Part shown: one piece after another, positions 1,773 through 26,722 of the stretch
Position numbering within the stretch: the stretch's first letter is position 1
Layout: the number at the start of each line of letters is the position of its first letter
DNA from: an uncultured Chloroflexia bacterium
GTDB lineage: Bacteria > Chloroflexota > Anaerolineae > JAAYZQ01
Direction of reading: 5' to 3'
NCBI GenBank assembly: GCA_963700285.1
Contig: CAVOXA010000001.1
Location: forward strand, 544,001 to 608,000
Length of the DNA: 64,000 nt
Notes under the pieces: generated by a model
What the model was told of the DNA's origin: nothing
The model's input: the letters and a program-made list of their open reading frames with translations, nothing else
The model's database searches: none
Position numbers and translations under genes: made by a program

Positions 1773-3893
<2,121 letters not shown>

Positions 3894-5048: not shown

Positions 5049-5998
5049 GTGGCTGAACATCATTGGGGCTGGTTGGTCGCAATCTATCTCTTCCTGGGCG
5101 GCATGGGCGCAGGCTCGTTCATCATGGCCTCACTGGTCGAGTTGACCGGCGAGCGATACAAGCACAAATACTGTCCCACGACCATGGTCGGGCGCTGGCG
5201 TCAGCGGCCCGCTGATCCTGATCGGCACGGTCCTGCTCATCTTTGACCTGGGTGCCGGCTTGCGCGAGCCGTGGCGCATCCTCTACATGTTCACCAACTT
5301 CGAGCTCGGTCATGACCTGGGGCATCTGGATCCTGACCCTTTTCCTGCCCATCGCCTTTCTCTATGGGCTCCTGGAGATCATGCACGTCCACCCCGGGAT
5401 CCTGGCCTGGGCGCGCAAGCGGCTGCGCTTCCTGCCCGAGACGCTGCCCTACCGCGGCATCAAGCGTGTGGTGTGCAGCGTGGGCATCGTGCTGGCCGTG
5501 GGCACGGCCATCTATACCGGGGTGCTGCTCAGCGTGGTCAAGGCCGTGCCGCTGTGGAACACGCCGATCCTGCCCGCCCTCTTTCTCGTCTCGGCCATCT
5601 CCACGGGCATGGGCCTGTGCCTTGACCTGTCGGCCACCCTGGCCGTCCCCGAACTCCACCGCCGCTTCAACAACATGCCCCTCGTCCACATGATCCTCAT
5701 CGGGCTGGAGATGGCCCTGCTGGCTCTGCTGCTGATGCACGGCCCTGAACCAGGGCGGAGAGGCGGCCGAATCGGCCCAGCTGATCCTCATCGGGCAATG
5801 GGAGCGTGATCTTCTGGGTGCTGGTCGTCGGCTTTGGCATGTTGTATCCCCTTCATGGTTCACGTCTATGCCTTTGCCCGCAGCAGCCACGGCTACGTCT
5901 CCGGCATCCTGTCAGGAGCGGGGATCGTGATCGCTGGCCTGTTCGTGCGCTACCTGATCGTGGCCGCGGCCATCCCGGTTGGACCTTGGGGTGGCTGA
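5049..5998 (+). CDS. NrfD/PsrC-like polysulfide-reductase membrane anchor (frameshifted)
   Basis: HWGWLVAIYLFLGGMGAG, 'FDLG', 'SVMTWG', 'YTGVLLS..KAVPLWNTPILPALFLVSA'. Confidence 0.88.
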
Positions 5999-6043: not shown

Positions 6044-7181
6044 ATGAGTCAGAAACTCAGTCTTCGCCGAATCAGAAAGTGGCCACGGTGGACCATCATC
6101 CCCATCGGCCTGGCGCTGGCCGGGCTGGCCATCGTGCTGGGGCTGATGCTGGAGCCGGCGGCCGACGCCCTGAGTCCCGCCACGGTCGAGCCGACGCCCA
6201 CGATGCCGACCATTGCCTACAGCGAGGGCACAAGTCGGACGGCTGCCACGACTGCCACTTTTCGCTGGCGGCACTGCAGGCCAGCGCTGCAGACCCGAGC
6301 ACTGCCGAGACGCTATCTGATCGAGGCCGAGTCGATAGTGACGCCCCACGGCAAGCTGGGCTGCCTGGCCTGCCATGGCGGCGACGGCGAGGCCGCAGGA
6401 CAAGGAGACGGCCCACCAGGGCCTCGTCGCCGACATGAGCGCCCAGGATCCGGAAAAGTGCGTCATCTGCCACGAGGATCTGCCCGACGAGATCCCCAGC
6501 GACCGGCTGCGCGTGCCCCACGGCGACATCGTCGAGCGGCATCGAGCAGGGCGAGCCATGCGACGTCCACTGCAGCGATTGCCACGGCGGCGTGGGCCAC
6601 GGCTTTGACCCGTCTCGGGCGAAAAGTTCTGCTCCATGACCGTCTGCCTGGACTGCCACCAGGAGCAGAAACCTGGAGATCCAGATGGCCGACTGCGATG
6701 CCTGCCACCTCGGCCCGCACGACGTGGCCATCTCGCTCACCTGCAACGACTGCCACACCTCCACTGAAGTGTGGCAGCGAGGTGGACTGCGGCATCCACC
6801 CGTGGCGCTGCCGGGCAAGCATGGCGAGACGGCCTGCTTCCAGTGCCACCAGTATCCCAACTTTAAGGGGCTGAACAACGTCTGCACCGACTGCCACGTG
6901 TCGGGCCACACCGACTGGGGCGATCACGACTGTGCCGAGTGCCACGACCCGGGCGGCACCTGGGACATGACGGCCTCGACCTGGGAAGGCCACGTCGAAC
7001 ACTGGGATCAGTACAAGGGCCAGCACCTCAAGGTGACCTGTGCTGGCTGCCACTTTGAGGGCTACCGACCTCGATCCCAGCTGCACGACCTGCCACACGG
7101 TACCCGAGAGCCACGACGACGGGCGGGCCGAGGATCGACTGCACAGCCTGCCACCAGGCGGACCAGCCGTGGGCGGAATAG
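6044..7181 (+). CDS. membrane-anchored multiheme cytochrome c (~13 CXXCH, frameshifted)
   Basis: N-terminal TM helix; CXXCH motifs spread across frames; paralogous to 23387-24613 (PHG.L.C..CH, RLR.PH, CSDCHGGVGHG). Confidence 0.82.
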
Positions 7182-7231: not shown

Positions 7232-8690
7232 ATGAGCAAAACAAAGAGGTTGCCGAGTATCATGGGGCTGGCAGTCGTGATAGTGCTGCTTGCTCCTGGC
7301 AGCCCTGGTCGCTGACCGGCTGTGCGCCGAGCCGGCGGCCATCGCCGCCGTGGAGCCGACGGCCACCGCTCTATCCCCCACCGCCGACCGACATCCCTGC
7401 CTCCGCCGCCGGGACCGACGCCGGCGGCCCTGGATTTTCCGCTTGCCGGCTCCCACGCATACGGTCGAGGTGGAGCAGGTGGACGACCAGAACTGCGTGG
7501 ATTGCCACACCGACGAGGAGACGTTAAAGGCCATGGCCACAGAAGGAAGAAGAGCCAGGAAGTCGACTCTGAGGGTGAGGGCTGAGGTGGCTCATTGCCT
7601 CCGTTGGAGGCATGGGAAAAGGTCATCCTCAACCAGGAATCGTTCTTTGAGACGGTGCACGGTCGCTATGGCTGCATCACCTGCCACGGCGGGACCGGCG
7701 ACGCGGTCGACAAAGAGGCGGCCCACGAGGGCATGGTCCGCGAGCCCGCTTCGGCTGAGGCCTGCGGCGACTGCCACCCCGACCAGGTGGCCACCGACGG
7801 CGAACAGCCTGCACACCAACCTGGCTGGCTATACGACCGTGCTGGCTGCCCGCAGCGCACCGGACAAGATGGCCCAACTGGACGTGATGATGGACAACCA
7901 CTGCGACAAGTGCCACACCACCTGCGGCCAATGCCACGTCAGCCGGCCCACGAACCTGGGAGGCGGCCTGGTGGCAGGGCCACGAGTTCAAGGGGATCCC
8001 GCCCATGAACCTGACCTGCACCGGCTGTCACGGCAGCCGCATCGAGAACGAGTACAAGGGCAAGAACGAGGGCGTCAAGGCTGATGTCCACTGGATCAAG
8101 GGCGGCATGCCCTGCTTTGACTGCCACTCGGCCGACGAGATGCACGGGGCCCTGGGCGAGTTCGACCACCGCTACGACGGCCCGCCCACACCAGGCTGCC
8201 AGGATCCGAGCTGCCACCCGACGTGGCGGCCGGCGATGGCATCAGCAGCACACCAGGGTACCACTTTGAGGCGCTGAGCTGCCAGGTGTGCCACTCGACC
8301 ACCTACAAGAACTGCTACAGCTGCCACGTGGCCCTGGAGGATGGTACAGCCTACTTCAAGACCGAACCTTCGGAGATGGCCTTCAAGATCGGGCGCAATC
8401 CGCTCCAGAGCGATGACCGTCCCTGGAAATATGTGCCGGTGCGGCACGTGCCCATCGACCGCGATTCGTTCGCCTACTATGGCGAGGATCTGCTGCCCAA
8501 CTTTGACGCGCTGCCGACCTGGAAGTATGCCACACCGCACAACATCCAGCGCATCACGCCGCAGAACGAGACCTGCAACGCCTGCCATGGCAACGCCGAG
8601 TTCTTCCTGACGGCGGACGACGTGGATCCGGACGAACAGGAGGCCAACAAGGACGTCATCGTCGAGGAGCTGCCGTTCTCGATGCCATAG
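7232..8690 (+). CDS. multiheme cytochrome c lipoprotein with probable selenocysteine at TGA 7583-7585 (copy 1; also indel-frameshifted)
   Basis: Signal peptide with 'LTGC' lipobox-like sequence, PT-rich linker, CVDCH, then EGEG-TGA-GGSLPPLEAWEK in the same frame; 10 CXXCH plus one CX4CH; C-terminal FKIGRNP...VRHVP...WKYATPHNIQR. Confidence 0.82.
7586..7616 (+). promoter_or_regulatory. bacterial SECIS-like hairpin (copy 1)
   Basis: TGCCTCC-GTT-GGAGGCA; the G-initiated apical loop begins 17 nt after the UGA; lower stem CTCAT/ATGGG with a bulged U. Confidence 0.72.
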
Positions 8691-8760
8691 GTCCTGACTC
8701 CCACGGGCGCTAGGAGGCAAGCCCGTGGGGGGCTGAGAAGCCGGAAAGCTGGGAGTAGAA

Positions 8761-10284
8761 GTGATGACGATGCCAGCCACGACCAAAACCGACCTGCTGC
8801 TTCTCGGCCTGTTGCTGGACCGGCCCATGCACGGCTATGAGCTGTACCAGCAGATCCAGGCCGAAGGCATTGACCGCTGGTTCAACATCAGTGCCGCCGG
8901 CGTGTACTACTCTCTGCGCAAATTGCGCGATCAGGGACTGGTGGCCGAATCCCGCCAGCGAGCAGGAGGAAGCGCTCGCAAATCTATCTATCGCTTGACC
9001 GAGAAAGGCCGGATCGCCTTCTTTGAAGCGATGGACGTGGAGCTGGCCAACCGGGATGAGATCTATCTGGACTATGACCTGGCCATCTATCTGTTAAACA
9101 AGTATCCTCTGGTACGGGCACTGTCTCACCTGGAGCAGCGCCAGGCTTTTCTTGAAGAACAGGCTCAAGTGGTGCGGTCAGCCGTGACTGCGGAACGAAA
9201 CAATGGTAGCTCGCCCCTGAAACTGGCCATTCTGGACCACAAGCGCCGGTTCCTGGAGATGGAGCAGAAATGGCTGGCCGACGTCATCCAGAATATTCAG
9301 GAGAACGGTGAAAATTCCGGCGTCGAGGAGGGAGGACGGCGACGTCTAATGGTCCTTAGCGGGGAACTGCGTCACTATCACCTGCCTGACCTGATGCGCC
9401 TCATTGTCTCGGGCCGGCACAGCGGTACGTTGAAGGTCACCGATGGGGCAGAACTCCGCACCCTGAGTTTCGAGGGTGGGCAGCCGGTCTATGCTTCCTA
9501 TGTGCGTGCTGGTGAGCCGCCCGTGGCGCTGCCCTCCTGTGATGAGGTACTGGATGGACTGTGCGATCTGTTTCGCTGGCAGGAGGGCCAGTTTACTTTT
9601 GACCAGCAAACAGACCATGAGGAATGGAGCGTGGCTCTGGAATGCAGCGCTGAGGAACTGATGTTGCGGGGCTGCCGCAAAGTGGACAATTGGGCCATCA
9701 TCCAGAACCTGGTTGCTTCTGGCGATGCCATCTTTGAAGTGGGTTCTGCTGCCAGCACGCTGGAACGTCTGACGCTTCTGCCGGGTGAGGAACGGGTGGT
9801 GGCAGCGGTAGATGGCGTCAAGGACGTGGCGACCGTCGCCCGAGATCTGGATCTGACATTGTTTGAGACCAGCCGGATCTTTTACTGTCTGGCCGCCATT
9901 GGGGTGTTGCGTACCGCCGACCTGGACAAGATCCGCTTGCGGCGCGTCTTTCGAGAGATAGCCGAGCTGATATGTACCAGCACCATCCCCTGGCGTGCTA
10001 GCCCGGATGATAGGGCCTGCGAGGAGGAGGTCAACCATAGGGTTAGGCATTTACCTCTGAGGCTGGAAAACGGACGGATGATAGACCTGGCCGATCCCCA
10101 ACTGGGGATGGAGGAACTGAAAGAGATGTATCTCCAGTTTCTGGTGGACCAGTTCCGGGTCATCAGCCAGCGCTTTGGGCACTCGAACGCCCGTCAAGCT
10201 TTCGAACGGGCTTTGCACCAACTGGCGCCTGAGCTACAGGCAGTGGCCAAGCGCTATGGCTTTGATCGACTGACGATTAACTAG
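8761..10284 (+). CDS. PadR-family regulator fused to DUF4388 (PATAN-like) domain
   Basis: LLLLGLLLDRPMHGYEL...VYYSLRKLRDQGLV...YRLTEKGR wHTH; LSGELRHYHLPDLMRLIVSGRHSGTL...FRWQEGQFTF. Confidence 0.85.
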   Translation: MMTMPATTKTDLLLLGLLLDRPMHGYELYQQIQAEGIDRWFNISAAGVYYSLRKLRDQGLVAESRQRAGGSARKSIYRLTEKGRIAFFEAMDVELANRDEIYLDYDLAIYLLNKYPLVRALSHLEQRQAFLEEQAQVVRSAVTAERNNGSSPLKLAILDHKRRFLEMEQKWLADVIQNIQENGENSGVEEGGRRRLMVLSGELRHYHLPDLMRLIVSGRHSGTLKVTDGAELRTLSFEGGQPVYASYVRAGEPPVALPSCDEVLDGLCDLFRWQEGQFTFDQQTDHEEWSVALECSAEELMLRGCRKVDNWAIIQNLVASGDAIFEVGSAASTLERLTLLPGEERVVAAVDGVKDVATVARDLDLTLFETSRIFYCLAAIGVLRTADLDKIRLRRVFREIAELICTSTIPWRASPDDRACEEEVNHRVRHLPLRLENGRMIDLADPQLGMEELKEMYLQFLVDQFRVISQRFGHSNARQAFERALHQLAPELQAVAKRYGFDRLTIN

Positions 10285-10320
10285 GCAGTACTTTCTCCAA
10301 ACCCTGGAAGGAGGAACATT

Positions 10321-10722
10321 ATGGCAACGGATCAGAAGGGTGGAAATGGTTGGACGGGGCTTATGCGCTGGACAGCGCGGATCTTGGCTCTGATCGTGGG
10401 CGGTCTCTTTGCGTACTTTGCGGTCGAGTTCGGCGCAAAGGCATTCTCCAGTCTGTCTCTAACTAGCGCTCAGGGCCTGCCTCTGCTGCTTGGCTTGCTG
10501 GTGGCGATCCTGGGCACCCTCATCGCCTGGCGCTGGGAGCTGGTTGGCGGTGTGATGGCCGTGGCTGGTGCGGTTGTCGTCATGGCCCTAGTCTGCGTAG
10601 GGTCGGGCCTTGACATGCTGTACTGTGCTTTCCTGTTCACACTGCCCCTGCTGACGGCTGGCGTCCTATACCTGGGCTGCTGCTGGCAGACGAGGCAGAC
10701 CAGGTCTTTGCACAGCGCATAG
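10321..10722 (+). CDS. small 4-TM membrane protein (paralog 1)
   Basis: RBS GGAGG; hydrophobic; RWTARIL...AWRWELVGG...LYLGCCW. Confidence 0.8.
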   Translation: MATDQKGGNGWTGLMRWTARILALIVGGLFAYFAVEFGAKAFSSLSLTSAQGLPLLLGLLVAILGTLIAWRWELVGGVMAVAGAVVVMALVCVGSGLDMLYCAFLFTLPLLTAGVLYLGCCWQTRQTRSLHSA

Positions 10723-10880
10723 TGTACGGGCTGGGTGAGAGATGGTTCCAAGCCAGTCTGGGATTGGTGTCGGCCATCCCAGCAGGCGATGGCCAGGCGC
10801 CATGGTTGTGACTGGCCAAAGGCTGTTAGAACGGTGTGTATATGTATACTCTGTCTTGAACGTGAAAAAGGAGGTTAATC

Positions 10881-11282
10881 GTGGCAAAGGTTGAGAGATG
10901 TGACAGTGGTTGGACGACGGCCATGCGCTGGACTGCCCGTATCCTGGCTCTGATTGCGGTCGGACTCTTTGTGTACTTTGCCGTTGAGTTCGGCACCAAG
11001 GTCTTTCCGTCGCTGGCTTGGACCAATCCGCAAGGGATCCCGCTCCTGATCGCCCTGGTATTGGCGCTGGCGGGGGTCATCATTGCCTGGCGGTGGGAGC
11101 TGATCGGGGGCATGATCGCGGTCGGTTGCTCTGCAGCGATCATCGCCCTGGTCTGCGCAGGGTCGGGTATGGACATGCTCCTCTGCGCCCTCTACTTTAC
11201 TCTGCCGCTTTTGCTGGCTGGTGTTCTGTACCTGGTTTGCTGCTGGCGGACTAGAAGGGCGTCTCAGTCACAGAGTGCATAG
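10881..11282 (+). CDS. small 4-TM membrane protein (paralog 2)
   Basis: RBS AGGAGG; same length (133 aa) and motifs as 10321-10722. Confidence 0.8.
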   Translation: MAKVERCDSGWTTAMRWTARILALIAVGLFVYFAVEFGTKVFPSLAWTNPQGIPLLIALVLALAGVIIAWRWELIGGMIAVGCSAAIIALVCAGSGMDMLLCALYFTLPLLLAGVLYLVCCWRTRRASQSQSA

Positions 11283-11364
11283 ACACCCGGAGGAAAGGAA
11301 GCGACACGACGGGCAGGAGCATCTTGCTGGCTGCCAAGATTGGTCGCGGGCGCAAATAGCGCGC

Positions 11365-11958
11365 CTAGGGGTGCAGATGCTGGTCCAGATGTTGGTGTCT
11401 TTCCTCAAACATCTGCATGACTAGCAGGAACTTGACCGGGCGGTCATTTACATTCTGCCAGCGGTGGGGTAGATCAGCGTGGAAAAGCAGGGCATCACCC
11501 GCTGAGAGGTGGTGGTGCTCGCCATCGATCTCATAATCAAGTTCACCCTCGAGGCAGAAGACCAACTCGTGTCCGGAATGGACCATTACTCTTTTTCCAC
11601 TGCTGGCACCGGCCTCCATGGTGACCATGAAGGGGTCGCATGCCTGCTGCTCCAGGCCATAGCCGATGCTTTCCAGGACGACGCTGGCGCTTCCGGAGCG
11701 AGCACGCGCGCCAGCCCGAGTGAGGATAACCCCCTTTTTCTCCACTGGTCCTGTGAAGAATGACGTGATGGGTACCCCCAGGGCCATGGCCAGACGGTGC
11801 AGGGTGGATACGCTGGGAGAAGTCACGCCTCGTTCGATCAGGCTGATAGTATTGGGTGAAAGATCGCAGAGTTCGGCTAACGCGCGCAGCGAAAGACCGC
11901 GCTGGCCACGCAGTTCCTTCAAATACGTCCCAACGTCCGGGGTTTGTTGTTCGCTCAT
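11365..11958 (-). CDS. XRE-family HTH plus cupin transcriptional regulator
   Basis: LRGQRGLSLRALAE...ISLIERG..SPSV; cupin H-S-G-H-E...PHRWQN. Confidence 0.9.
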   Translation of the reverse strand: MSEQQTPDVGTYLKELRGQRGLSLRALAELCDLSPNTISLIERGVTSPSVSTLHRLAMALGVPITSFFTGPVEKKGVILTRAGARARSGSASVVLESIGYGLEQQACDPFMVTMEAGASSGKRVMVHSGHELVFCLEGELDYEIDGEHHHLSAGDALLFHADLPHRWQNVNDRPVKFLLVMQMFEERHQHLDQHLHP

Positions 11959-11981
11959 CGTGGTTCTCTCCTGGAAGTGAT

Positions 11982-13188
11982 CTACCTCAATCCAGGATTA
12001 TACCACGGCTGTGCGTAGGGACCGGAAAGGCTACCGCTCGGAGATTGGCCGGTAGTGCGACGCGCATCCGGCAGGGTCTCAAAACTGACATCCCGTAGCA
12101 AGCCCAACACCAGGTTATTGATAGCGGCCATCGCTTGTGCTCCTTGGCCCTTCAATCTGCAGCGATCCTCTTTTAGGGTATCATCGCGACGGAAATGAAG
12201 CCCGTTTTCAATGCCCAATGACCACGATTAAGCGCTAACAGTCGGTCCGCATTCGCCTCATCTCTTGTCAGGCTGCTTACGCCATACGAGACTTCCTGGA
12301 AGACCTTGTCATCCGAGGTGCGTACAAAATGGCGTTCTAGACGGAAGACCTGCTCGCAATCAGGCCACTTTACATACTCCTTCAGCATGCTACTGCTGGT
12401 CAGGGTTCGTCGTTCCCGGCGGCCATGTCCTTTTCCATGAGTGGTTGCCGTCTGGAAATCTTTGTGACACGGACTGAATCCACCGGTGCACATTTCGGGC
12501 TCAAACAAGGTTTCGATGTCTCGTTTCAACTGCCCCTGATTGTCCTTCACCCTCCAGACATAGTCCCCACCATCTTCCACTATCGCCATCGATAGCTCCC
12601 GCTGCGTCAACAATGCGTCGCCGGTCACTACTTTTCCTCGCAAATCAAGCTGTTTGATGGCTCGCATGGCGGCTGGAATCTCGTTTTCGTGGCTACCCAC
12701 CTCGACCTGAAACGCGACCCAGCCCTCTTCCGGCAAATATGCGCTTAGTAGATGAACACCTCTAGTTTTACCCTCCGGGATCGTGGCCCGCATCGTCTTG
12801 CCATCCAGATTGATCAGAATGCTTTGTCCTGTCCCCGGCTGCTCCTGAAAGAAATCACGGACTACTTGTTCAAAGGCATCAATGTCTATTGCCTTGTTCA
12901 GAACGCGGCTGTACGTCGTGGCGTGTGGTGCTCGCGCCTTGGACAGCCCCAGGGCCTCGGCCAAAACCTCTTTGCGGAGCGCTACCCACTGTGCAATCCC
13001 GCGTAGATGGTCTTCTCCACTCAGCTTGGCCAGGACGATGAATACCAATACGGTCACCAAGGTGAGCGCAGCCCGCGCGCATCACGTCGATCCTGGAGCT
13101 CGGCCAAGGCGGCGAACAAACTGTCCAAATCAATGACGAGTCCTTCGGGCCTCAGATTGACATCGAACGAAAGCGGAATATACTTCAT
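11982..13188 (-). mobile_element. ISAs1-family transposase (frameshifted)
   Basis: DRRDARG, IVLAKLSG, LDGKTMR, HLLSAY, ENEIPAA, VTGDALLTQ, VKDNQ, RGHW.IEN.LH..RD...EDRCR; RBS AGGAGG before the ATG at 13188. Confidence 0.9.
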
Positions 13189-13701
13189 CTTGCCCCTCCT
13201 TGGTTCCTGGGTTGCTCATCACTCTCCCAATACCAAGGTAGGGGCTTTTTTCACACTGTCCGCAGAGTTGCCAATCTGGATGTCACGGGTAATCAGGTTT
13301 GTCGCTCGCGGCCGACTTGTTTGACTTTCTGCTGCGAAGCACCTTAAGGTCAGGCCTGGATGTCACCGACCAGGCCGAGTAACTGGTTCATACGATCCTC
13401 GGTACGGGCCGGCGCATCATTGAGCTGTGGATCCCCCTCGTGCTCCAGATACCTTGGCGCAGCCACCAGCGATCTCGAGGCTGTGACAGGGGACCTGAGT
13501 CCGTGCACCAGCATTGTAGCCAGGTAACGTCTCTGGCTTGTCTCGTTCGATACAGGGTCCAGAAAAGCCCGGGATCATCTGGAAATTGACCGCGCTGTTT
13601 GGTTCCACGATGCACGTGCATTTCTGCTTGCGTGACTTGACATGGCACAGTCCCTGGTGTAGAATACATTCATCTATTGGAATATTCAGGAAGGAGCATG
13701 A

Positions 13702-14073
13702 ATGACAGGCGCCGCAAATGGTTTCAAGGCCCAAGCCCAGCTTTTCCGGGCGCTCTCGCACCCGGTGCGGCTGCGTATCTTGGACATCTTGGCTCACCAG
13801 GAAGCCTGCGTCTGTCACCTGACGTGCATCCTAGGCCAGCGTCAGCCCTACGTCTCGCAACAGTTGGCCACCCTCAGAGATGCCGGCCTGGTGGCCGATC
13901 GCCGCGAGGGCACCTTGATCTACTACCGGCTCGCCGACGATCACCTGGCTAGACTGCTCGACGCGAGCAGGACGGTGGTTCGAAATCTTGACGGAGATGG
14001 CCTGGTTTTTCCGGTGGCTCCAGAAGTGGCCCTGGAGAACTGCCCCTGTCCGCGCTGCCAGGGCGAGGGCTAA
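13702..14073 (+). CDS. ArsR/SmtB-family metalloregulator
   Basis: FRALSHPVRLRIL, CVCHL, SQQLATLRDAGLV; C-terminal CPCPRC. Confidence 0.9.
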   Translation: MTGAANGFKAQAQLFRALSHPVRLRILDILAHQEACVCHLTCILGQRQPYVSQQLATLRDAGLVADRREGTLIYYRLADDHLARLLDASRTVVRNLDGDGLVFPVAPEVALENCPCPRCQGEG

Positions 14074-14151
14074 CTCGTTCCATTATTCGGGTAGATCCTC
14101 AATCCTGTGAATCTGCGGGTGAACAGCTGGCAGAGACCGATGGAGGTCGAT

Positions 14152-15648
14152 ATGTCTATCGCGGAATGGATCATCACCCTGCTGCAGTCGGGAGTCAGCA
14201 GCCTGGCATCCTACCTGGCTGCGCACGTTCTGCTCTGCCTGGTACCCGCCTTTTTCATCGCCGGGGCCATGACGGCGCTGGTTCCCAAGGAGGCCATCAC
14301 ACGCTACCTGGGCCGCAACGCCTCGCCGTGGGTCTCCTATCCCATGGCCGCTGCGGGGGGCTTTGTCCTGGCCGTTTGCTCCTGTACGATCCTGCCTCTC
14401 TTTGCCAGCATCTATGCCCAGGGCGCCGGGCTGGGACCGGCCATCACCTTCCTGTTTGTCGGGCCGGCCATCAACATCCTGGCCGTCAGCTACACCGGTG
14501 TGGCCCTAGGTATGGATATCGCCATCGCCCGCATTGTCCTCTCACTGGTGTTTGGCATCGGCATCGGCTTGATCATGGCCTTCCTCTACCGCCGCGATGA
14601 ACAGGCTCGAACTGAGGCGTTGGGACAGAGCAAGGTAGCTGCCGGTCAAGCCTTTGCGGCCAGCGCCAGTATCAAGGGTGCGATCCTTATCTTCTTGTTG
14701 TTGCTTCTGTCGGCCCTGATCGTCGGTACACTGCGGGTGGATCTCCTGACCGGTACCTACAGCCAGGTCAACCTGCCTTTGGCTAATGCTGACGGCTGGC
14801 AAGTTGCCCTGGACCGGCTGGTGCCCTACGACGCCAGTCAGGGACAGGAGGGGGTTTCGGTCCATGGCCTGTTTCTCATCGGCCTGCTGGGCCTCATCGG
14901 CGTGGCGTCCTGGTTGGGGCTGAACAACATCGACGAGGGGTTCCACGCCTGGTCTTGGGTGGCGCTGGGCCTCATCGTGCTGACCCTCCTGGTGGCGGCG
15001 TTGCAGATCACGGTCACGGCCAGTGGCGTTCAGATCAATATCACCGGCCGGTTTGTTGCCGAAGTGATCGTCATCGGCGCCGTGGTGTTAGTCGCCTGGA
15101 AAGGGCTGGACGAGTTCGAGGTACAGGAATGGTTGTGGGAGACGTGGCGATTTGTAAAGCAGATCTTCCCTTTGCTCATCGTGGGCGTCTTTTTGGCTGG
15201 CATGGTGCGGGTGTTGATCCCGCCCCAGTTGATCGAGACCATTGCCGGGGAGAATACCCTGCTGGCCAACCTGGCCGGCGTGCTCTTTGGCGTGTTCATG
15301 TACTTTCCCACGCTGGTCGAGGTGCCCATCGCCAGGATGTTCCTGGAGCTGGGCATGCACCGCGGGCCGTTATTGGCCTATCTGATCGCCGACCCGGCGT
15401 TGAGTATCCAAAGTATCCTGATTACGGCCAAGGTCATTGGCAAAGCCAAAACTTGGATCTATGTTGGCCTGGTGACGGTATTTGCCACAACGGCTGGCTT
15501 GCTCTACGGGGCCTGGGTGGATGGGGCCAGCCTGTGGCTGATCCTCGCGGCCCTGGCAGTTTTTCTGGGCCTTTTGGTTCTGGCGCTGTGGCTGGTTGGC
15601 CGCCGTACGAACCGTGCCCCGGTCCCGGCCAAGACAGCGCAGACGTAG
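14152..15648 (+). CDS. ArsP/DUF318-family permease
   Basis: HVLLCLVPAFFIAGA, LAVCSCTILPLF, FLFVGPAINILA, FMYFPTLVEVP, GPLLAYL. Confidence 0.88.
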   Translation: MSIAEWIITLLQSGVSSLASYLAAHVLLCLVPAFFIAGAMTALVPKEAITRYLGRNASPWVSYPMAAAGGFVLAVCSCTILPLFASIYAQGAGLGPAITFLFVGPAINILAVSYTGVALGMDIAIARIVLSLVFGIGIGLIMAFLYRRDEQARTEALGQSKVAAGQAFAASASIKGAILIFLLLLLSALIVGTLRVDLLTGTYSQVNLPLANADGWQVALDRLVPYDASQGQEGVSVHGLFLIGLLGLIGVASWLGLNNIDEGFHAWSWVALGLIVLTLLVAALQITVTASGVQINITGRFVAEVIVIGAVVLVAWKGLDEFEVQEWLWETWRFVKQIFPLLIVGVFLAGMVRVLIPPQLIETIAGENTLLANLAGVLFGVFMYFPTLVEVPIARMFLELGMHRGPLLAYLIADPALSIQSILITAKVIGKAKTWIYVGLVTVFATTAGLLYGAWVDGASLWLILAALAVFLGLLVLALWLVGRRTNRAPVPAKTAQT

Positions 15649-15712
15649 ACCAGACTGGATCTTGAGGTACCAGCATTCATATGCTGAGCTTTATACTGGA
15701 AGGAGAGTTTGT

Positions 15713-15983
15713 CATGGAAGTCAAGGTTCTGGGCACGGGCTGCCCCAACTGCAAACGGCTGGAAAAGGTCACGCGCCAGGCTCTGGATGAGCTGGGCGTC
15801 GAGGCTTCGGTCACCAAGGTGACCGATTTCGGCGAGATCATGACCTACGATATCCTGTCGACGCCAGGCTTGGTCATCGATGGAACTGTGGTTTCTTCAG
15901 GACGGGTACCCAGCAAGGCCGAGGTGGCTTCCCTGATCACTGCGGCCCTGCCGCCGGCCGGGGAGCAAATTCACCGAAGCTAA
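15713..15983 (+). CDS. small thioredoxin-like redox protein (MTH895/ArsE type)
   Basis: [17 protein letters not shown]...TPGLVIDG...GRVP. Confidence 0.88.
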
Positions 15984-15995
15984 AGGAGGCGACAA

Positions 15996-16253
15996 ATGTT
16001 GCAGATCAAGGTCTTTGGCACCACGCCGCCCTGCGCCAACTGCAAGCGGGCGGAGAGAGAGGCCCGCAAGGCGGCCGAGAAATTTCCCGGCCAGGTGGAG
16101 GTCGTGCACCTGGACGCGCTGGGATCGGAGGCCCAACGGTACGGGCTGATGGTGACGCCCGTCGTCGTCATCGGTGACGAGGTGGTCAGTAGCGGCAAGG
16201 TCGTACCGGCCCCCAGGCTGATACCCATGGTCGAGCAAGCATTGCAGAACTAA
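15996..16253 (+). CDS. small thioredoxin-like protein
   Basis: PPCANC...TPVVVIGDEVVSSGKV; RBS AGGAGG. Confidence 0.85.
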   Translation: MLQIKVFGTTPPCANCKRAEREARKAAEKFPGQVEVVHLDALGSEAQRYGLMVTPVVVIGDEVVSSGKVVPAPRLIPMVEQALQN

Positions 16254-16268
16254 TCAAGGAGGCAAAAC

Positions 16269-16538
16269 ATGGTCAATCTGGAGATATTCAGCGGCGACCC
16301 ACCCTGCCCGGGCTGCGTCGCCATCATCGATCTGGCCGAGAAGGTGGCGGCCAGGTATCCCGGCGAGCTGGCGTTGAGCATCTTGAAAGGCCAAGACGCC
16401 ATGGAAAAGTTTGAAGCTTATAAACTCTTCTGCGTGCCGGCGGCCGTCGTCAATGGCTCCATCCGCATCGAGGGCATGTGCCCCAGCGAAGCGACTCTGA
16501 ACAACGCACTGCGGGAGGGGGGACTATGCTTAAAGTAA
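16269..16538 (+). CDS. small thioredoxin-like protein
   Basis: PPCPGC...FCVPAAVVNG...GMCPS; RBS AGGAGG. Confidence 0.8.
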   Translation: MVNLEIFSGDPPCPGCVAIIDLAEKVAARYPGELALSILKGQDAMEKFEAYKLFCVPAAVVNGSIRIEGMCPSEATLNNALREGGLCLK

Positions 16539-16792
16539 AGATGGAGGCTTTTGTGTCGATCCCACCCTGCTCCGGCGGGGTGGCCCTGAAACGGTTGCTG
16601 AAAGAGATCGAGTCGGAATTCGGCGAGCAGGTGGAGGTCGTCTTTCACACCGGCCCGGGCGATCCCGAGTGGGACGAGTATGCCATCAACAACGCCCCGG
16701 CCCTGGTCGTGGGCGACCTGGTCAAGTTCGTGGGACTGGCCCCCAGCAAGGCCAGCCTGGTCGGCGCCCTGCGCGAGGCAGGTCTAGAGTAG
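16526..16792 (+). CDS. thioredoxin-fold protein (monothiol CSGG)
   Basis: PPCSGG...APALVVGD..KFVG.APS; start overlaps the preceding gene. Confidence 0.72.
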   Translation: MLKVKMEAFVSIPPCSGGVALKRLLKEIESEFGEQVEVVFHTGPGDPEWDEYAINNAPALVVGDLVKFVGLAPSKASLVGALREAGLE

Positions 16793-17179
16793 GCGGAGAT
16801 TTTCACCTCTCGGCTGGACCGTCCGGCAGGATGAACCCCGGGCGGTCCTTTCCCCGTCACCGTACCGGACTGCCAGCCAGCCAGCCTCGTAAGAACAAGG
16901 GGACTGATTCCGAATGCATGATCTTGTCTGTTATTGTTTTGGGTTTTCGACTGCGGATATCCGGGAGGATGTCAGGGCAAACGACGGCGAATCGACCATC
17001 CTGGCCAAGATAACGGCGGAAAAGAAGGCGGGCACCTGTCGCTGCGCGACGGTGCATCCAGAGGGGCGCTGATGCCTGGCTGATGTCCGCCGTGTCGCGG
17101 ACGAAACGATGGCAGAGTTGTAGGGTACAATCGATCTGGCTGCTGTAGGCTGGGGTGGGGACCTATGCAATGCTCCAGG

Positions 17180-18701
17180 CTAAGGAGCCAGCAGCTTGTC
17201 AAACTCGTATCGCCTGGCCACAGTCTGGAGTTCGGGGGCCAGTTGATTCAGCGTCCGCTTGAAGGACTGGCGGGCGTTCTCACGTCCAAATCGCCGGCTG
17301 ACCACGTCCAGTTGAGCCAGCAGGAAGGCGCGGTACATCTCTACCAATCCGTCGGTTTTCAGCCGAGGATCAGCCTGGTCCTCGATCCGACCCTGGTTGA
17401 TGCACAGGGGCAGACCGTCAGTGAGCCGATTCACTTCCTGTTCGCAAGAACGATCATCGGGTGCGTTTCGCCAGGCGACGGTGCTGCTGCACATAAGCTC
17501 TGCGATCTCGCGAAAGACGCGGCGCAAGCGGATCTTGTCCAGGTCTGCGGTGCGTACCACGCCCACAGCCGCCAGACAGTAGAAGGCCCGGCTGGCCTCA
17601 AAGACAGTCATGCCCAGTTCGCGGGCGATGCTGGCCACATCCTTTACGCCGTCGAGGGATTCCAGGATCTGCTGCTCGGTGGGTGTGAGCGTCAGCCCTT
17701 CCACGCCCTCAGGGGCCATACCCAGCTCAAAGATAGCGTCGGCCGAGGATACCAGGCGCTGGATGATGGTCCAGTTGTCCACCCAGCGGCAGCCACACAG
17801 GATCAGGTCCTCGGCGCTGAGCGTCAGGGGCACGCACCATTCCTCGGATGCCATCTCCTGGTCAAAGGTGAACTTGCCCTCCTGCCAGCGGAACAGGTCG
17901 CACAGGCCCTCGATCACCTGTTCTGGCGCCGGTGGGGGAGTCGCCGGCTCGTCCTTGCGGTGGGACGTGGCGCAGACCGGCTGGCCTTCCTGGAAGGTCA
18001 GGGTACGAACCAGTATGCCATCGGTGACGGTTAGCCTGCCGCTGTGCTGGCCCGAGACGATAAGGCGGATCAGATCGGGCAGGTGATAGAGGCGCAGATC
18101 ACCACTCAGGATCATGAGCCCACGCTGTTCGTCCGTTCGGGCATCATCCGCCTGGCCCTTCCCCTGGATACTGCGGATCACATCGGCCAGCCACTCTTGC
18201 TCCATCTCCAGAAAGCGGCGCTTGTGATCCAGGATGGCAAGTTTCAGAGGGGACCGGCCATGTGCTCGTTCTTCCACCAGAGCGGCCAGCAGGTCCCCAT
18301 CTTGCTGGACCAGGAATGCCTGGTGCTGCTCCAGCAGATCGATGGCTCGCTGCAGGGGAAGTTTGTTCAGCAAGTAGATGACCACGTCATAGTCCAGGTG
18401 AGGGCTTGTCCTGGCTGACCGCCTGCTCCTCCATGGCCGCGAAAAAAGCGGCCCGGCCATCTTCGGTCAGACGATAGATCGACTTGCGGGCGCTGCGCCC
18501 TCCCCGCTGGCGCGATTCTGCCACCAAGCCCTGATCCCGCAGCTTGCCCAGGGAATAGTACACGCCGGCCATGCTGACGTTGAACCAGCCGTCAATCCCC
18601 TCGGCCTGGATCTGCTGGAAAAGCTCGTAGCCGTGCATCGGCCGGTCCAGCAGCAGGCCCAGGAGCAATAGATCGATTTTGGTCGCGGATAGTGCGCTCA
18701 T
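17180..18701 (-). CDS. PadR-DUF4388 fusion regulator, paralog 2 (frameshift ~18400)
   Basis: PadR wHTH in 18387-18701, remainder in 17180-18460; highly similar to 8761-10284. Confidence 0.85.
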
Positions 18702-18773
18702 ACCTGTTCGTGCCCCTTCATGTTAAGATCAGTATATCAGAGAACGGGCGAAAGGTCAAACACTCTCATATTT

Positions 18774-18843
18774 TTGACAAGCATTGGAGGCTATGTTATA
18801 ATCCAGCCCGAGTCAGAATCAATAGAGTATTCAGGATTGAGTA
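18774..18843 (+). promoter_or_regulatory. consensus sigma70 promoter plus palindromic operator (site 2)
   Basis: TTGACA 18774-18779, 17 bp, TG-n-TATAAT 18797-18802; operator TATTCAG-GA-TTGAGTA 18828-18843. Confidence 0.82.
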
Positions 18844-18949
18844 TTGTGCCTTTTTCAGAGGCAAGTACCGGCAGTTGCCGGCTGTACGAACGTCCCAATC
18901 CCATTCGAGATCGAAAAAAGCAAGAAAAAAAAGAAGGAGACAAAGAACC

Positions 18950-20110
18950 ATGAAAAAGCTCGCAGTATTGAACCTCGTTTTGGCCCTCAGCTTGCTGCTG
19001 GGGTCCGCCGCCTTGGCCCAGGAGCCTGAGGGTGACTTTGGCGTTATCCAGCGCACCCTGGACGCCGCCCTGGACGGTTGGAGCCCGGTCATCGGCGCCG
19101 ACGCCCTGTTCGAGAATCTGAACGACGGCGATACCTCCAATGACCCCTTTATCGTCAGCGTCCGCGCTCCCGATGACTACGCGTTGGGCCACATTCCCGG
19201 CGCCATCAACATTCCCTGGAAGACCATCGCCAAGCCCGAGAGCCTGGCCCAGCTGCCCACCGACAAGCCGATCGTGGTCTATTGCTACACCGGCCACACC
19301 GGCCAGCTTTCGGCCACCATCCTGAAGGCCCTGGGCTACGACGTCCAGAACCTCAAGTTCGGCATGATGGGCTGGACCCAGAATGACAAAGTACTGGCGA
19401 CGACACGCTTTGGCCCCGACACCGATCAGCGCGACTACCCGACGGAGACCGAGGCCAACGAGGCCACCGAGACCTATGCCTATCCCGAAGTCGCCACCGG
19501 CGAGGAAGATGCCTTTGAGATCGTGCGCGTCGCCGCCGATACCTGGATCAACTCTGATGCATCGCCCATCGTCTCGGCTGACTCGGTCTTTGACGTCCTG
19601 AACGACGGCGACGACAGCAATGACCCGTTCATCGTCAGCGTCCGCGCACCCGACGACTATGCCCTGGGTCATATCCCTGGCGCCATCAACATCCCCTGGG
19701 CGGCGATTGCCAAGCCTGAGAACCTGGCCAAGTTGCCGGCTGACAAGCCAATCCGTACCTACTGCTACACAGGCCACACCGGTCAGGTGGCGGGCACGGC
19801 TCTGGGCCTGCTGGGTTACGATGTCGCCAACATAAAGTACGGCATGATGGCCTGGACCGAGGATGACGAAGTGCTGGCCACGGCCCGCTACAATCCCGAG
19901 ACTTCGCCCGATTACACCATCGAGGGTACGGCCGCTGAGGCACCTGCCGCCGAAGAGGTAGTCGCCGAAGAGACTGCAGCCGAAGAAACAGCCCCCGCGA
20001 CCGTGCCTGAGACCGGTGGCGCTGCCTTCCCGGTCGAAGGTCTGCTGCTGGGCTTTGGTACGCTGACCGCTGCCGCTGGTCTGTACCTGCGCCGGCGCAA
20101 CGCAGCCTAA
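18950..20110 (+). CDS. secreted tandem-rhodanese sulfurtransferase with LPXTG-like (VPETG) sortase anchor
   Basis: Signal peptide MKKLAVLNLVLALSLLLGSAALA; two GHIPGAINIPW...YCYTGHT domains; tail VPETGG, hydrophobic stretch, LRRR. Confidence 0.9.
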   Translation: MKKLAVLNLVLALSLLLGSAALAQEPEGDFGVIQRTLDAALDGWSPVIGADALFENLNDGDTSNDPFIVSVRAPDDYALGHIPGAINIPWKTIAKPESLAQLPTDKPIVVYCYTGHTGQLSATILKALGYDVQNLKFGMMGWTQNDKVLATTRFGPDTDQRDYPTETEANEATETYAYPEVATGEEDAFEIVRVAADTWINSDASPIVSADSVFDVLNDGDDSNDPFIVSVRAPDDYALGHIPGAINIPWAAIAKPENLAKLPADKPIRTYCYTGHTGQVAGTALGLLGYDVANIKYGMMAWTEDDEVLATARYNPETSPDYTIEGTAAEAPAAEEVVAEETAAEETAPATVPETGGAAFPVEGLLLGFGTLTAAAGLYLRRRNAA

Positions 20111-20199
20111 GCTCTACTAGTGTTTTCGCGCTCGGGTGGGTGCTGCTGCATGCGGCACTCACCCGTTTGCTATGTGACAAAGAAGGGAGCAACCAGAAG

Positions 20200-21300
20200 A
20201 TGAAAAAGCTCTCAGTATTGAGTTTCGTGTTGGTCCTCAGCCTGTTGTTGGGTACGGTGGCCTGGGCCGCCGATGACATCCTGGCGGCCGCGGACGACTA
20301 TTTCAGCGGCGGTACCAAGAATATCTCTGCCAGCGATCTCTTTGACAACCTGAACGACGGCGACGATATCAACGACCCCTATGTCATCAGCGTTCGCAGC
20401 CAGGAAGACTATGATAAGGGCCACATCCCGGGAGCGGTCCACATGGACCCCAAGACCATGTTCACCGCGGAGAGCTTGGCCACCCTGCCCACCGACAAGC
20501 AGATCGTCGTCTATTGCTATACCGGCCAGACTTCCAGCCAGGTCGTGTCGGCCCTCAACATGCTGGGCTACGACGCTTACAGTATGCTCTTTGGCTTTTG
20601 CGCCTGGAATTCGGACCCCAATGCTGGCGGCAAGTGCTTTAGTGACAGCATGGGCAGCGATTATCCGACCACGACCGATCCCACCGCCGTGGCCATGATC
20701 GCTTATCCACCGGCCACTCCGCTGGCCGACACCACCCAGGCCGCGGCCGATGCCTATTTCAACAACGGTACCAAGAACATCAAAGCATCTGACCTGTTCG
20801 ACAACCTGAATGATGGGGACAGCAGCAACGATCCCTGGATCATCAGCGTTCGCTCGGCGGAGGACTATGAGAAGGGCCACATTCCCGGTGCTGTCTGGGA
20901 AGATTACAAAACTATGTTCGGCCAGGATGGCCTGATATCCATTCCGCCCGAGAAGCTGATCGTCGTCTACTGCTACACCGGCCAGACCGCCAGCCAGGTC
21001 ACCTCGGCCCTCAACATGCTGGGCTACGATGCCTCCAACCTGCTGTTTGGCATGCAGGGCTGGACGATGGACAAGGACGTGCGGGCCAAGTTCTTTGACC
21101 CCGAGACACAGCTCAACGAGTATCCCTACGAGGGAACCGCGGCTGAAGGCGCCGCGGAAGAGACCAGCACCGAATCTGTTCAGCCTGAGACCGTGCCCGA
21201 GACCGGTAGCGCGGCGCCGCCGGTGGACGGTATCCTGCTCGGCTTTGGTGCGCTCACTGCTGCCGCAGGCCTGTACCTGCGCCGGCGCAAGGCAGTGTAG
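20200..21300 (+). CDS. secreted tandem-rhodanese with VPETG sortase anchor (paralog 2)
   Basis: Signal peptide MKKLSVLSFVLVLSLLLGTVAWA; two GHIPGA...YCYTGQT domains; tail VPETGS...GLYLRRRKAV. Confidence 0.9.
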   Translation: MKKLSVLSFVLVLSLLLGTVAWAADDILAAADDYFSGGTKNISASDLFDNLNDGDDINDPYVISVRSQEDYDKGHIPGAVHMDPKTMFTAESLATLPTDKQIVVYCYTGQTSSQVVSALNMLGYDAYSMLFGFCAWNSDPNAGGKCFSDSMGSDYPTTTDPTAVAMIAYPPATPLADTTQAAADAYFNNGTKNIKASDLFDNLNDGDSSNDPWIISVRSAEDYEKGHIPGAVWEDYKTMFGQDGLISIPPEKLIVVYCYTGQTASQVTSALNMLGYDASNLLFGMQGWTMDKDVRAKFFDPETQLNEYPYEGTAAEGAAEETSTESVQPETVPETGSAAPPVDGILLGFGALTAAAGLYLRRRKAV

Positions 21301-21373
21301 AGCGTTACACCTGGATTTCTGCCTCATCCTCGCGGGCGCAGCCCAGGGCTGCGCCCGCTTGCTCTCCCATCTC

Positions 21374-21561
21374 TAGGGCTGCTGCATTGTCCCTTGACAT
21401 GCACTGCCAGTCAGATCTGTCATTGCGAGACGCGCTGTTTGCGCCGTGGCAATCCCCAGGGCACAAGTGGAGATCGCTTTCCCTCGGCAGGCCCTTCGCG
21501 GACTCAGGACATGCTCGGGACAGGCGCTGACGCTCGCGATGACGACTTTGCAACAGCCGTA
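21374..21561. mobile_element. 188-bp MITE with ISAs1-like ends
   Basis: Imperfect 18-bp TIRs (TAGGGCTGCTGCATTGTC / GACTTTGCAACAGCCGTA, 14/18 match); exact 10-bp flanking repeat CTCCCATCTC (21364-21373, 21562-21571); internal palindrome GTCATTGCGAG...CTCGCGATGAC. Confidence 0.78.
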
Positions 21562-21580
21562 CTCCCATCTCTTCAGAGAC

Positions 21581-21609
21581 TTGACGGATCAGGCATGCTG
21601 TGATAGAAT
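21581..21609 (+). promoter_or_regulatory. sigma70-type promoter
   Basis: TTGACG, 17 bp, TG-n-TAGAAT upstream of the second Sec-cytochrome. Confidence 0.55.
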
Positions 21610-21712
21610 TCACACGAGACCTCTGCGCCAGCGGCTGGCACATCCAGCGAGCATCGGGCTCTGCCGGGGTTTGCTGACCAACAAGTCGCTGAGTATATCC
21701 GGAGAAAGGCTT

Positions 21713-23259
21713 ATGGGTAGAACAACAAAGTTCCCAAAGATGTGGAGTGAGGCGCTGGTTGCCCTTCTCATGCTCATGGTCCCCTTGCTGCTGATCACCT
21801 GCGGTGGGCAGCCTACAGAGGTGGCCGTGGCGCCGACGGACGCGCCCGCTGAGGTCGCTCCGACCGATGCGCCTCCAACGGAGGCACTTACTGATGTACC
21901 TCCTACGGAGCCCCCGCCCACTCAGGCGCCAACCGAGCCTCCGCCGACCGAAGCTCCTACGGAACCGCCGGCGACCGACACGCCAGAGCCCACGGATGAA
22001 CCAACGCCGGAGCCAACAGACGCGCCGATACCGGAAGCTGTGGACGATACGGCTTGCATCGGTTGCCATACGGACGAGGAAACCCTCAAGCTCGTCGCTG
22101 AAGAGGAAGAAAAGCCCGAGGTAGAATCCGAAGGCGAGGGCTGAGGCGGCTCTGTGCCTCCGTTGGAGGTATGGGAGAAGGTCTTATATCAGCGACGAGA
22201 CCTTTGTAGATTCGATCCACGGCAAGATGGGCTGCATCACCTGCCACGGTGGTGCCAGCGGCGTCGAGGACAAGGAAGCGGCCCACGAAGGCGTGGTCCG
22301 TGATCCCGATTCGGTGGAGAAATGCGCCGTCTGCCACATGGAGACGGTTGAGGCAGACCAGAATAGCCTGCACTCGCAACCTGGCTGGCTATACTGACCG
22401 TTCTCTCCGCCCGCTCCACCCCGGACAAGATGCCCCAGCTCGAAGAGATGATGGGAAATCACTGCGACTACCTGCCACACGAGCTGCGGCCAGTGCCACG
22501 TCAGCCGGCCCACCAACCTGGGCGGCGGCCTGACGGCGGGTCATGAGTTCAAGAAGGTGCCCGCCCATGAACCTGACCTGCACTGGCTGTCATGGCAGCC
22601 GCATCGAGAACGAGTACAAGGGCAAGAACGAGGGCGATCAAGGCCGACACCCACTGGATCAAGGGCGGCATGCCCTGCTTTGACTGCCACACGTCTGACG
22701 AGATGCACGGCAAGCTGGGCGAGGCCGAGCATCGCTATGACGGCCCGCCGACGCCCAGCTGTACGGACGCGGACTGCCACCCAGATGTGGGCCCGGCGAC
22801 GGCAATGTCTACCACAGCGAGTTCCACTATGATGCGCTGAGCTGCCAGGTCGTGCCACTCGACGACCTACAAGAACTGCTATAGCTGTCACGTGGCCCAG
22901 GAAGACGGCGTGCCCTTTTTCAAGATCGAGCCGTCGGTGATGGACTTTAAGATCGGCCGCAACCCGCTCCAGAGCGACGACCGGCCCTGGGAGTACGTCC
23001 CGGTCCGGCACGTGCCCATCGATACCGAGTCCTTCGCCTACTATGGTGAGGACCTGCTGCCCAATTTTGACGCGGTGCCGACCTGGAAGTATGCCACGCC
23101 ACACAACATCCAGCGAATACACCTCAGACCGAGAGCTGCGATGCCTGTCACGGCAATGCCCAGTTCTTCCTGACGGCCGAGGATGTGCTGCCCGAAGAGT
23201 TGGAGGCCAACAAAGACGTTATCGTCGAAGAGCCGCCACCAGCCATGGGTGGGAGGTAA
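21713..23259 (+). CDS. multiheme cytochrome c lipoprotein with probable selenocysteine at TGA 22142-22144 (copy 2; indel-frameshifted)
   Basis: Lipobox LLITC, PTE repeats, CIGCH, EGEG-TGA-GGSVPPLEVWEK; same heme pattern and C-terminus as copy 1. Confidence 0.82.
22145..22177 (+). promoter_or_regulatory. bacterial SECIS-like hairpin (copy 2)
   Basis: TGCCTCC-GTT-GGAGGTA with the same 17-nt offset from UGA as copy 1; one G-C to G-U change that keeps the pairing. Confidence 0.72.
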
Positions 23260-24613: not shown

Positions 24614-24619
24614 TCTGCC

Positions 24620-26675: not shown

Positions 26676-26722
26676 TGCTTTTCTCCTCATTCCTTTTCCA
26701 GATTATTCTTGGCTGAATGGCC

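Follow-up and report, generated by a model that had tools for sequence, protein, structure and literature searches.

Two paralogous genes located in a stretch of 64,000 nucleotides (nt) from an uncultured Chloroflexia bacterium (GenBank assembly GCA_963700285.1, contig CAVOXA010000001.1, positions 544,001 to 608,000 of the forward strand; hereafter the window) each most likely encode, on the basis of sequence comparisons, a single exported eleven-heme selenium protein in which an in-frame UGA codon is translated as selenocysteine (Sec). An earlier note, based on the letters of the window, had proposed that the two genes encode selenoproteins, and this interpretation is supported by the conservation of the UGA, by a covarying hairpin located 3' to it, by homologues with cysteine at the same position, by the presence of a Sec machinery in the genome and by an export signal that is confined to the upstream part of the gene. 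For both genes, we regard the Sec reading of the UGA as very likely. Most probably they belong to a new and uncatalogued family of Sec-containing multiheme cytochromes, with a predicted function and with an architecture different from that of the known Sec-heme protein MccSep. The features of the two genes, with positions in the window, including the hairpins that resemble a selenocysteine insertion sequence (SECIS), are as follows.

7232..8690, plus strand: copy 1, a lipoprotein 11-heme cytochrome c whose in-frame UGA is likely Sec, interrupted in the assembly by several indels of 1-2 nt
7583..7585, plus strand: TGA of copy 1, the likely Sec codon, in the context GEG-U-GG
7596..7612, plus strand: SECIS-like hairpin of copy 1, with a 7-bp stem and a GUU loop starting 18 nt after the UGA
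21713..23259, plus strand: copy 2, a paralogous lipoprotein 11-heme cytochrome c with a long Pro/Thr/Glu linker and an in-frame UGA, carrying nine single-base indels 3' of the UGA
22142..22144, plus strand: TGA of copy 2, the likely Sec codon, in the context GEG-U-GG
22155..22171, plus strand: SECIS-like hairpin of copy 2

Both TGA codons lie where they had been reported, at 7583-7585 within DSEGEG-U-GGSLPPLEAWEK and at 22142-22144 within ESEGEG-U-GGSVPPLEVWEK. A scan using one genome per species yielded 481 related stretches among 539 candidates, and 79 loci were taken, of which 77 cover the site and two are incomplete. They derive from Anaerolineae, Dehalococcoidia, Acidimicrobiia, Desulfobacterota and Spirochaetaceae. 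The codon at the site is TGA in 74 of the 77 loci, TGG in two and TTG in one, and it is never TAA or TAG, while the true stop codons of 75 complete genes, examined as a control, were TAG (32), TAA (23) and TGA (20). At one of the TGG loci (L070:8355) both hairpin and flanks are intact and a close relative (L072) carries TGA, consistent with either a recent loss of Sec or an assembly error. Within the phylum of the window, 300 further genomes were searched; eight have the gene, and each shows TGA. The phylum to which the cultured carrier Desulfosarcina alkanivorans PL12 (L134) belongs has it in 40 of 381 genomes, with one TGA in 41 of 42 matches, the remaining match being cut by the contig start; there the motif G-x-G-U-G/A surrounds the TGA in 29 of 30 examined loci, and distant subfamilies retain it. 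Metagenomes searched with a pattern that left the codon free gave at least 120 matches and, among the 80 loci examined, 75 were family members, all with TGA and none with TAA or TAG, and five were unrelated. These samples of homologues overlap in part and related sequences are not independent. The in-frame UGA is conserved across homologues with conserved coding sequence on both sides, the pattern by which selenoproteins are recognised.

The hairpins described earlier, TGCCTCC-GTT-GGAGGCA (7596-7612) and TGCCTCC-GTT-GGAGGTA (22155-22171), are both present, with 17 nt between the TGA and the loop G. Their local folds yielded -12.1 kcal/mol for copy 1 and -12.5 kcal/mol for copy 2 (z -2.8 and -3.7, respectively). 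The same geometry occurs at nine of the 196,041 TGA triplets on the two strands of the genome; three of these lie in frames open on both sides and two of the three are the genes described here. Bacterial SECIS (bSECIS) elements have been modelled (PMC13188914) with a loop of 3-9 nt carrying a G in its first two positions, a stem of 4-16 bp, a spacing of 16-37 nt and a minimum free energy of -7.5 or lower; the 3-nt GUU loop, 7-bp stem, 17-nt spacing and folding energy of about -12 kcal/mol fall within every one of these limits. The hairpin also resembles those at the genome's two formate-dehydrogenase-type Sec sites, which show a 7-bp stem and a GGUCU loop at +19. An Rfam scan of the window yielded tRNAs only.

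The loop reads either GUU or GGU in the 69 distinct sequences, starting at +18 in 67 of them and at +21 in two, and the stem codons are fixed, as had been noted for the two copies, while nearby synonymous sites vary (CCT in 57/57, CCG in 61/61 and GAG in 60/60). For 41 chosen sequences, both sides change in six of the seven base pairs, and 95% of the cells can pair compared with 41-54% for slid partners, a result favoured by derivation of the structure from the same 41 sequences. The compensatory swaps in the stem alter the encoded amino acids (PPLEA, APLEP, EPLAP and TPLAP) and, therefore, the RNA constraint overrides the coding constraint. Conservation is confined to base pairs 1-7; the lower stem, where copy 1 has its bulged U, is variable. 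The most distant members (L189-L193) do not share this exact hairpin and, of the three loci lacking TGA, two have it weakened or lost whereas L070 maintains it.

The genome was found to encode a complete set of the Sec machinery components that were sought, selA, selB, selD and tRNA-Sec (selC), with selD carrying an in-frame TGA of its own, together with homologues of CcmC, CcmE and CcmF. Its other likely selenoproteins with in-frame TGA codons are SelD, one MvhD and two formate-dehydrogenase-type subunits (G000 C9:56688, C22:53849-54217, C1:67946 and C1:1379341).

A number of observations run counter to the Sec reading, and some of them suggest other explanations. For 50 of the 79 loci, the three lacking TGA among them, the carrier genomes were searched for selA; it was detected in 46 and not in four metagenome-assembled genomes (MAGs). 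Since the background frequencies were too high (55/61, 231/301 and 172/251, or 69-90%), selA co-occurrence does not discriminate as a test of Sec. Moreover, codon +7 is TTG or GTG in 64 of 69 sequences, and a GGAG or GAGG word precedes codon +4 in 54 of the 69, such that reinitiation is possible. Each locus could then consist of two separate genes, a monoheme lipoprotein ending at the UGA and a ten-heme protein restarting at the TTG or GTG within the hairpin, which is how databases annotate it, and 86 of the best 120 database matches do show the short downstream form. Nevertheless, this arrangement would not account for a stop at the site that is always TGA when true stops are mixed, nor for the existence of full-length homologues with a sense codon, and the joined model folds as one unit. 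The earlier note had placed the signal in the upstream half only, and a hydrophobic signal-like stretch was in fact detected in 65 of 68 complete upstream halves and in 0 of 74 downstream halves (first 60 residues). Attachment of heme c takes place after export, and a downstream half made on its own would therefore be unable to mature. Two separate genes are, consequently, extremely improbable.

The best 120 database matches comprise, besides the 86 downstream halves starting at or after the hairpin, 34 full-length proteins, and none of the 34 carries Cys. Among the 31 of these close full-length forms that were aligned, 26 have Trp at the column. The Deltaproteobacteria-type sequences include an independent second Trp case (P0185) as well as one Cys case. 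Together with the hairpin-keeping L070, these Trp residues raise the question of whether the UGA is read through as Trp, with the hairpin serving as a general read-through signal. However, 29 of the 31 close forms constitute a single derived clade nested among the TGA forms (99 in the Shimodaira-Hasegawa-like approximate likelihood ratio test (SH-aLRT), for a quick version of the tree covering 59 of 109 rows, incomplete halves being left out, with the root not fixed), and this clade has also lost the Glu and Gly residues of the flanking E-G-x-x-G. A change from TGA to TGG is a single transition, and the hairpin shows SelB-type geometry with an invariant loop G.

Furthermore, many of the distant homologues have Cys at the UGA column. 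A profile search of 50% representatives reached more distant proteins, and 42 full-length forms were examined, 40 from the search and the two Deltaproteobacteria-type cases. They carry Cys (15, one doubtful), Ala (6), Trp (5), Tyr (3), a gap (3) or other residues (10), one of the Cys forms, P0273, reading GEG-C-GG. Cys-aligned homologues had been sought as a check on the Sec assignment, and this search overturned a reading according to which there were none; Cys forms are absent among the closest 34 full-length matches, from the region search and from the Cys-codon pattern scan. That 27 of the 42 carry neither Cys nor Sec also counts against a required chalcogen, and the fold can therefore persist without one. 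We consider translation of the UGA as Trp no more credible than separate genes, and Sec remains the preferred assignment. Of the outcomes that would have refuted the earlier note, the three examined were not observed: Sec genes are present, TAA and TAG do not occur at the site among homologues, and downstream halves carry no signal-like stretch of their own.

The earlier note had stated that the frame continues without an indel, and this holds at the TGA itself and fails elsewhere. Three-frame translation and alignment to a sister genome revealed that both copies shift frame repeatedly, copy 1 near 7311-7324, 7370-7399, 7443, 7537-7555, 7802, 7976 and 8220-8260, and copy 2 at nine indels near 22183, 22376, 22395, 22468, 22563, 22635, 22797, 22848 and 23114. 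These frameshifts, which the earlier note does not mention, weaken the case for the two window copies, which may not be intact in vivo and could be decayed pseudogenes of a genuine selenoprotein family, especially as indel density is higher in both than in their surroundings, at about 20 per kb in two peak bins (a bin being the sum of two overlapping alignments). On the other hand, the indels are mostly insertions of one base when compared with the sister genome, to which the two copies are 86% and 90% identical, and the UGA and hairpin are undamaged. The neighbouring nrfC, nrfD and 13-heme genes are also interrupted, as are selB and selD, which match in pieces, and the genome's only proS match (window 2445-3890), a sign of indel errors in the assembly. 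Because these other genes are affected, the indels are probably assembly errors rather than real, and decay of the two copies is improbable. In an orthologue of copy 2 (L062/L044), the frame is open through the heme domain. No public sequencing run contained more than 0.14 of the words, and contigs of relatives from public runs differ by single bases at some of the indel sites, for example at 7976, and can neither correct this assembly nor demonstrate expression.

Since both copies are frameshifted, the eleven-heme protein is described from intact relatives. These carry, in order, a lipoprotein signal, a Pro/Thr linker, heme motif 1, 29-36 residues, GEG-U-GG and ten more heme motifs. The eleven hemes proposed earlier agree with this motif count if the eighth motif, CX4CH here and CX2CH in many homologues, is included. 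The placing of Sec next to the first heme is uncertain, as 29-36 residues separate Sec from heme motif 1. Ten non-motif His residues are invariant in 59/59 rows and at least two His lie between hemes 8 and 9 in all 76 loci checked. With 11 conserved non-motif candidates for 11 hemes, all of the hemes may be bis-His ligated. No conserved free Cys was found in the family, and we infer that Sec constitutes the reactive site. Dehalococcoidia members (L114-L117, L119, L122, L123, L131, L135 and L108 are the loci listed) have three additional Cys residues in their C-terminal part, arranged as CxxS and CxxxC, and ccm genes lie next to ten of the Dehalococcoidia loci. A proposal that Lys280 is catalytic, based on its presence in 73/73 TGA loci and its loss together with Sec in the Trp forms, was abandoned, since K or Q had been demanded by one of the search patterns and TGA forms with Thr are found.

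A first predicted fold, from 19 sequences, was unusable, with a predicted local distance difference test (pLDDT) value of 43.7. Using 109 sequences, the mature domain was predicted with a pLDDT of 90.8 and a predicted template modelling score (pTM) of 0.87, and with lower pLDDT values of 69-79 in the Sec region. The best solved match is the octaheme tetrathionate reductase (OTR) of Shewanella oneidensis (PDB 1sp3; Z 8.9, root-mean-square deviation 4.5, 262 residues aligned), followed by a match at 4.6; Foldseek gave no match in the PDB at E 0.001. In profile comparison, OTR-like neighbours matched at 96% over 167 columns. Weak sequence matches to HAO (E about 2e-5) were discounted as they probably reflect the heme motifs. 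The family differs from OTR in carrying 11 rather than eight hemes. Lys is a ligand of OTR heme II, and no conserved Lys was seen in the family before the putative equivalent of that heme. The OTR model TIGR04315 did not match the family itself and matched only the fused OTR part of one locus (L038; 179 of 375 bits). In that locus (L038:1-2637), the Sec domain is joined to an OTR-like domain that contains an in-frame TGA itself (STY-U-APP), making the product a candidate double-Sec multiheme protein, and selA was not found in its MAG (G053, 88% complete). The Sec position of the family differs from that of the UGA in the OTR part, and a Sec-bearing OTR is listed in a 2026 review (PMC13188914).

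Among the closest known systems is MccSep/ExtKL of Geobacter sulfurreducens (GSU2937-2936; NF040886), a Sec-heme polysulfide reductase (PMC13510729), with PMC1914089 concerning the same protein. Like the family described here, it is an exported multiheme cytochrome c with one Sec encoded by an in-frame UGA and a SECIS downstream, it is annotated as two genes, and a rhodanese, ExtH, is encoded in the same ext cluster. MccSep has five hemes with Sec C-terminal to them all, an Ig-like domain and a His/Cys-ligated heme (PMC13510729). In the present family there are 11 hemes and Sec falls between the first two; its members have a lipid anchor, and no free Cys is conserved. When five full-length members were searched with the NF040886 hidden Markov model (HMM) there was no match at E 0.01 and, judged by sequence, the family is not MccSep.

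No NCBIfam model (June 2026) reached its cut-off for the family, including the other selenoprotein models TsoA/B/C/X/Y, GSU2204 and UshA-like. Among the 119 selenoprotein families tabulated in the 2026 review (PMC13188914, Table 1), no entry in the parts consulted could be recognised as this one, and a term search of the deep-Sep main text found no mention of cytochrome or heme. The literature searches made here yielded no description of the family, and MccSep was the only characterised Sec multiheme protein found, such that the family would provide a second, unrelated Sec-heme architecture. At E 1e-20, at least 1,681 and at least 2,662 related proteins were found in two database searches, and nearly all of the top matches are stored as incomplete halves.

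The genes surrounding the two copies, some of which are also interrupted, are listed below.

4331..5021, plus strand: NrfC/TtrB/DsrO-type 4Fe-4S protein with a twin-arginine-like leader; frameshifted, start approximate, typed from an orthologue
5052..5980, plus strand: NrfD/PsrC-type membrane protein (PF03916 in an orthologue); frameshifted, ends approximate
6044..7181, plus strand: membrane-anchored 13-heme cytochrome c, a candidate electron relay; frameshifted
8761..10284, plus strand: PadR + DUF4388 regulator following copy 1
17165..18701, minus strand: second PadR + DUF4388 regulator, divergent from the rhodanese genes; frameshifted
18950..20110, plus strand: exported tandem rhodanese 1, with two YCYTGHT loops and a C-terminal VPETG followed by a hydrophobic/basic tail
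20197..21300, plus strand: exported tandem rhodanese 2, with two YCYTGQT loops and a similar C-terminal tail, directly upstream from copy 2
23387-24613, minus strand: multiheme cytochrome, in the block 23387..26690 convergent to copy 2; any link of the block to copy 2 would be tentative
24556-25746, minus strand: HybB/HmcC/NrfD-like membrane gene, in the same block
25743-26690, minus strand: HybA/HmcB-like Fe-S gene, in the same block

Copy 1 is thus preceded by nrfC, nrfD and the 13-heme cytochrome gene, and copy 2 by two exported tandem rhodaneses with CYTG loops, whose C-terminal tails we take to be sortase-signal-like; the earlier note does not mention this context. Using an HMM built from eight rhodanese domains of these loci, a rhodanese was detected within 6 kb in 58 of the 77 loci and in 28 of the 33 that have at least 4 kb on each side; other neighbours in the 77 loci are NrfC-like proteins (40), cytochrome b (23) and NrfD (19). 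One to four rhodanese domains are fused in frame upstream from the UGA in nine loci, and a rhodanese is present in 27 of 30 examined loci from the phylum of D. alkanivorans. At locus L101, a UshA-like gene with an in-frame TGA (YPAG-U-GAS), a candidate selenoprotein, lies downstream from the rhodanese, just upstream of 10073. Genes for an ArsR regulator and an ArsP-type permease lie between the two copies, at 13702-16800 in the window, along with several small thioredoxin-like genes that contain CxxC motifs.

This gene context makes a role in sulfur redox chemistry, together with rhodanese, likely. We propose that the lipid-anchored, exported cytochrome would reduce sulfane sulfur from a cell-surface rhodanese, using electrons from the quinone pool. 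Quinol would be oxidised by NrfD or cytochrome b, and electrons would be passed on by NrfC and, at copy 1, by the 13-heme cytochrome, with the 11 hemes serving mainly as a wire. Sec, on its Gly/Glu-rich loop, would attack a rhodanese Cys-persulfide or a polysulfide, and the resulting Se-S intermediate would be resolved by heme electrons, the protein having no conserved second Cys, with release of sulfide. The arrangement may be compared with PsrABC polysulfide reductase and the Sud rhodanese of Wolinella succinogenes (PMC2628731): both combine an NrfC/NrfD-type electron module with an exported rhodanese, an analogy that is inferred, and differ in that no molybdopterin subunit occurs among the conserved neighbours. 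The Sec-cytochrome would then stand in for PsrA, the molybdo-subunit, and the rhodanese would correspond to Sud. We favour, with moderate confidence, such a Sec-heme replacement of PsrA reducing rhodanese-borne sulfur, and a similar degree of confidence applies to the reductive direction taken by itself.

Several points tell against this proposal. Copy 1 has no adjacent rhodanese and none was seen in 19 of the 77 loci, some on short contigs; the fold match to OTR is middling; the mechanism of MccSep needs its His/Cys-ligated heme, and the eleven-heme family has no conserved free Cys. Moreover, the gene context gives neither direction nor substrate, and NrfC/NrfD modules show no sign of direction. 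With Sec retained, the same context therefore fits an oxidative module in which sulfur derived from sulfide or thiosulfate is loaded onto rhodanese and electrons pass to the quinone pool, in the manner of TsdA or SoxAX, and Sec-heme chemistry has been related to the reverse of TsdA/SoxAX (PMC13510729). This is unlikely, given that reductase activity is ascribed both to the one Sec-heme enzyme characterised so far and to OTR, which has the closest fold; formate dehydrogenase genes beside L101 also point away from it, suggestively only.

Somewhat less likely still is that the real Sec protein acts on a selenium or tellurium oxyanion, or on another metalloid, in detoxification or selenium handling. 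MccSep also reduces selenite, and the ArsR, ArsP-type and thioredoxin-like genes between the copies and the UshA-like gene with its own TGA after L101 would be in keeping with such a substrate. However, the 40 commonest clusters of neighbours do not include the arsR-arsP block, and rhodanese and quinone-linked subunits are frequent.

A more far-reaching version of the reductive sulfur proposal is possible, though less likely than not: a molybdenum-free sulfur respiration module, widespread in sediment Chloroflexota, Desulfobacterota, Acidimicrobiia and Spirochaetota, in which an all-bis-His 11-heme wire ends in a lone Sec on a flexible arm and strips sulfur reductively from rhodanese persulfide, with neither a catalytic heme site nor a resolving Cys of its own. 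Sec catalysis of this kind would be new, and would have stayed hidden through the splitting of the gene by gene callers. If the sulfur reading is correct, abundant sediment Anaerolineae and Dehalococcoidia would possess a means of respiring or cycling zero-valent sulfur that has been overlooked and that selenium supply would influence. The cultured D. alkanivorans PL12 and the natural Cys forms render the idea directly testable.

Elsewhere in the window, an open reading frame at 12173-13060 on the minus strand has no counterpart in the aligned sister locus and, from its sequence, is presumably transposase-like.

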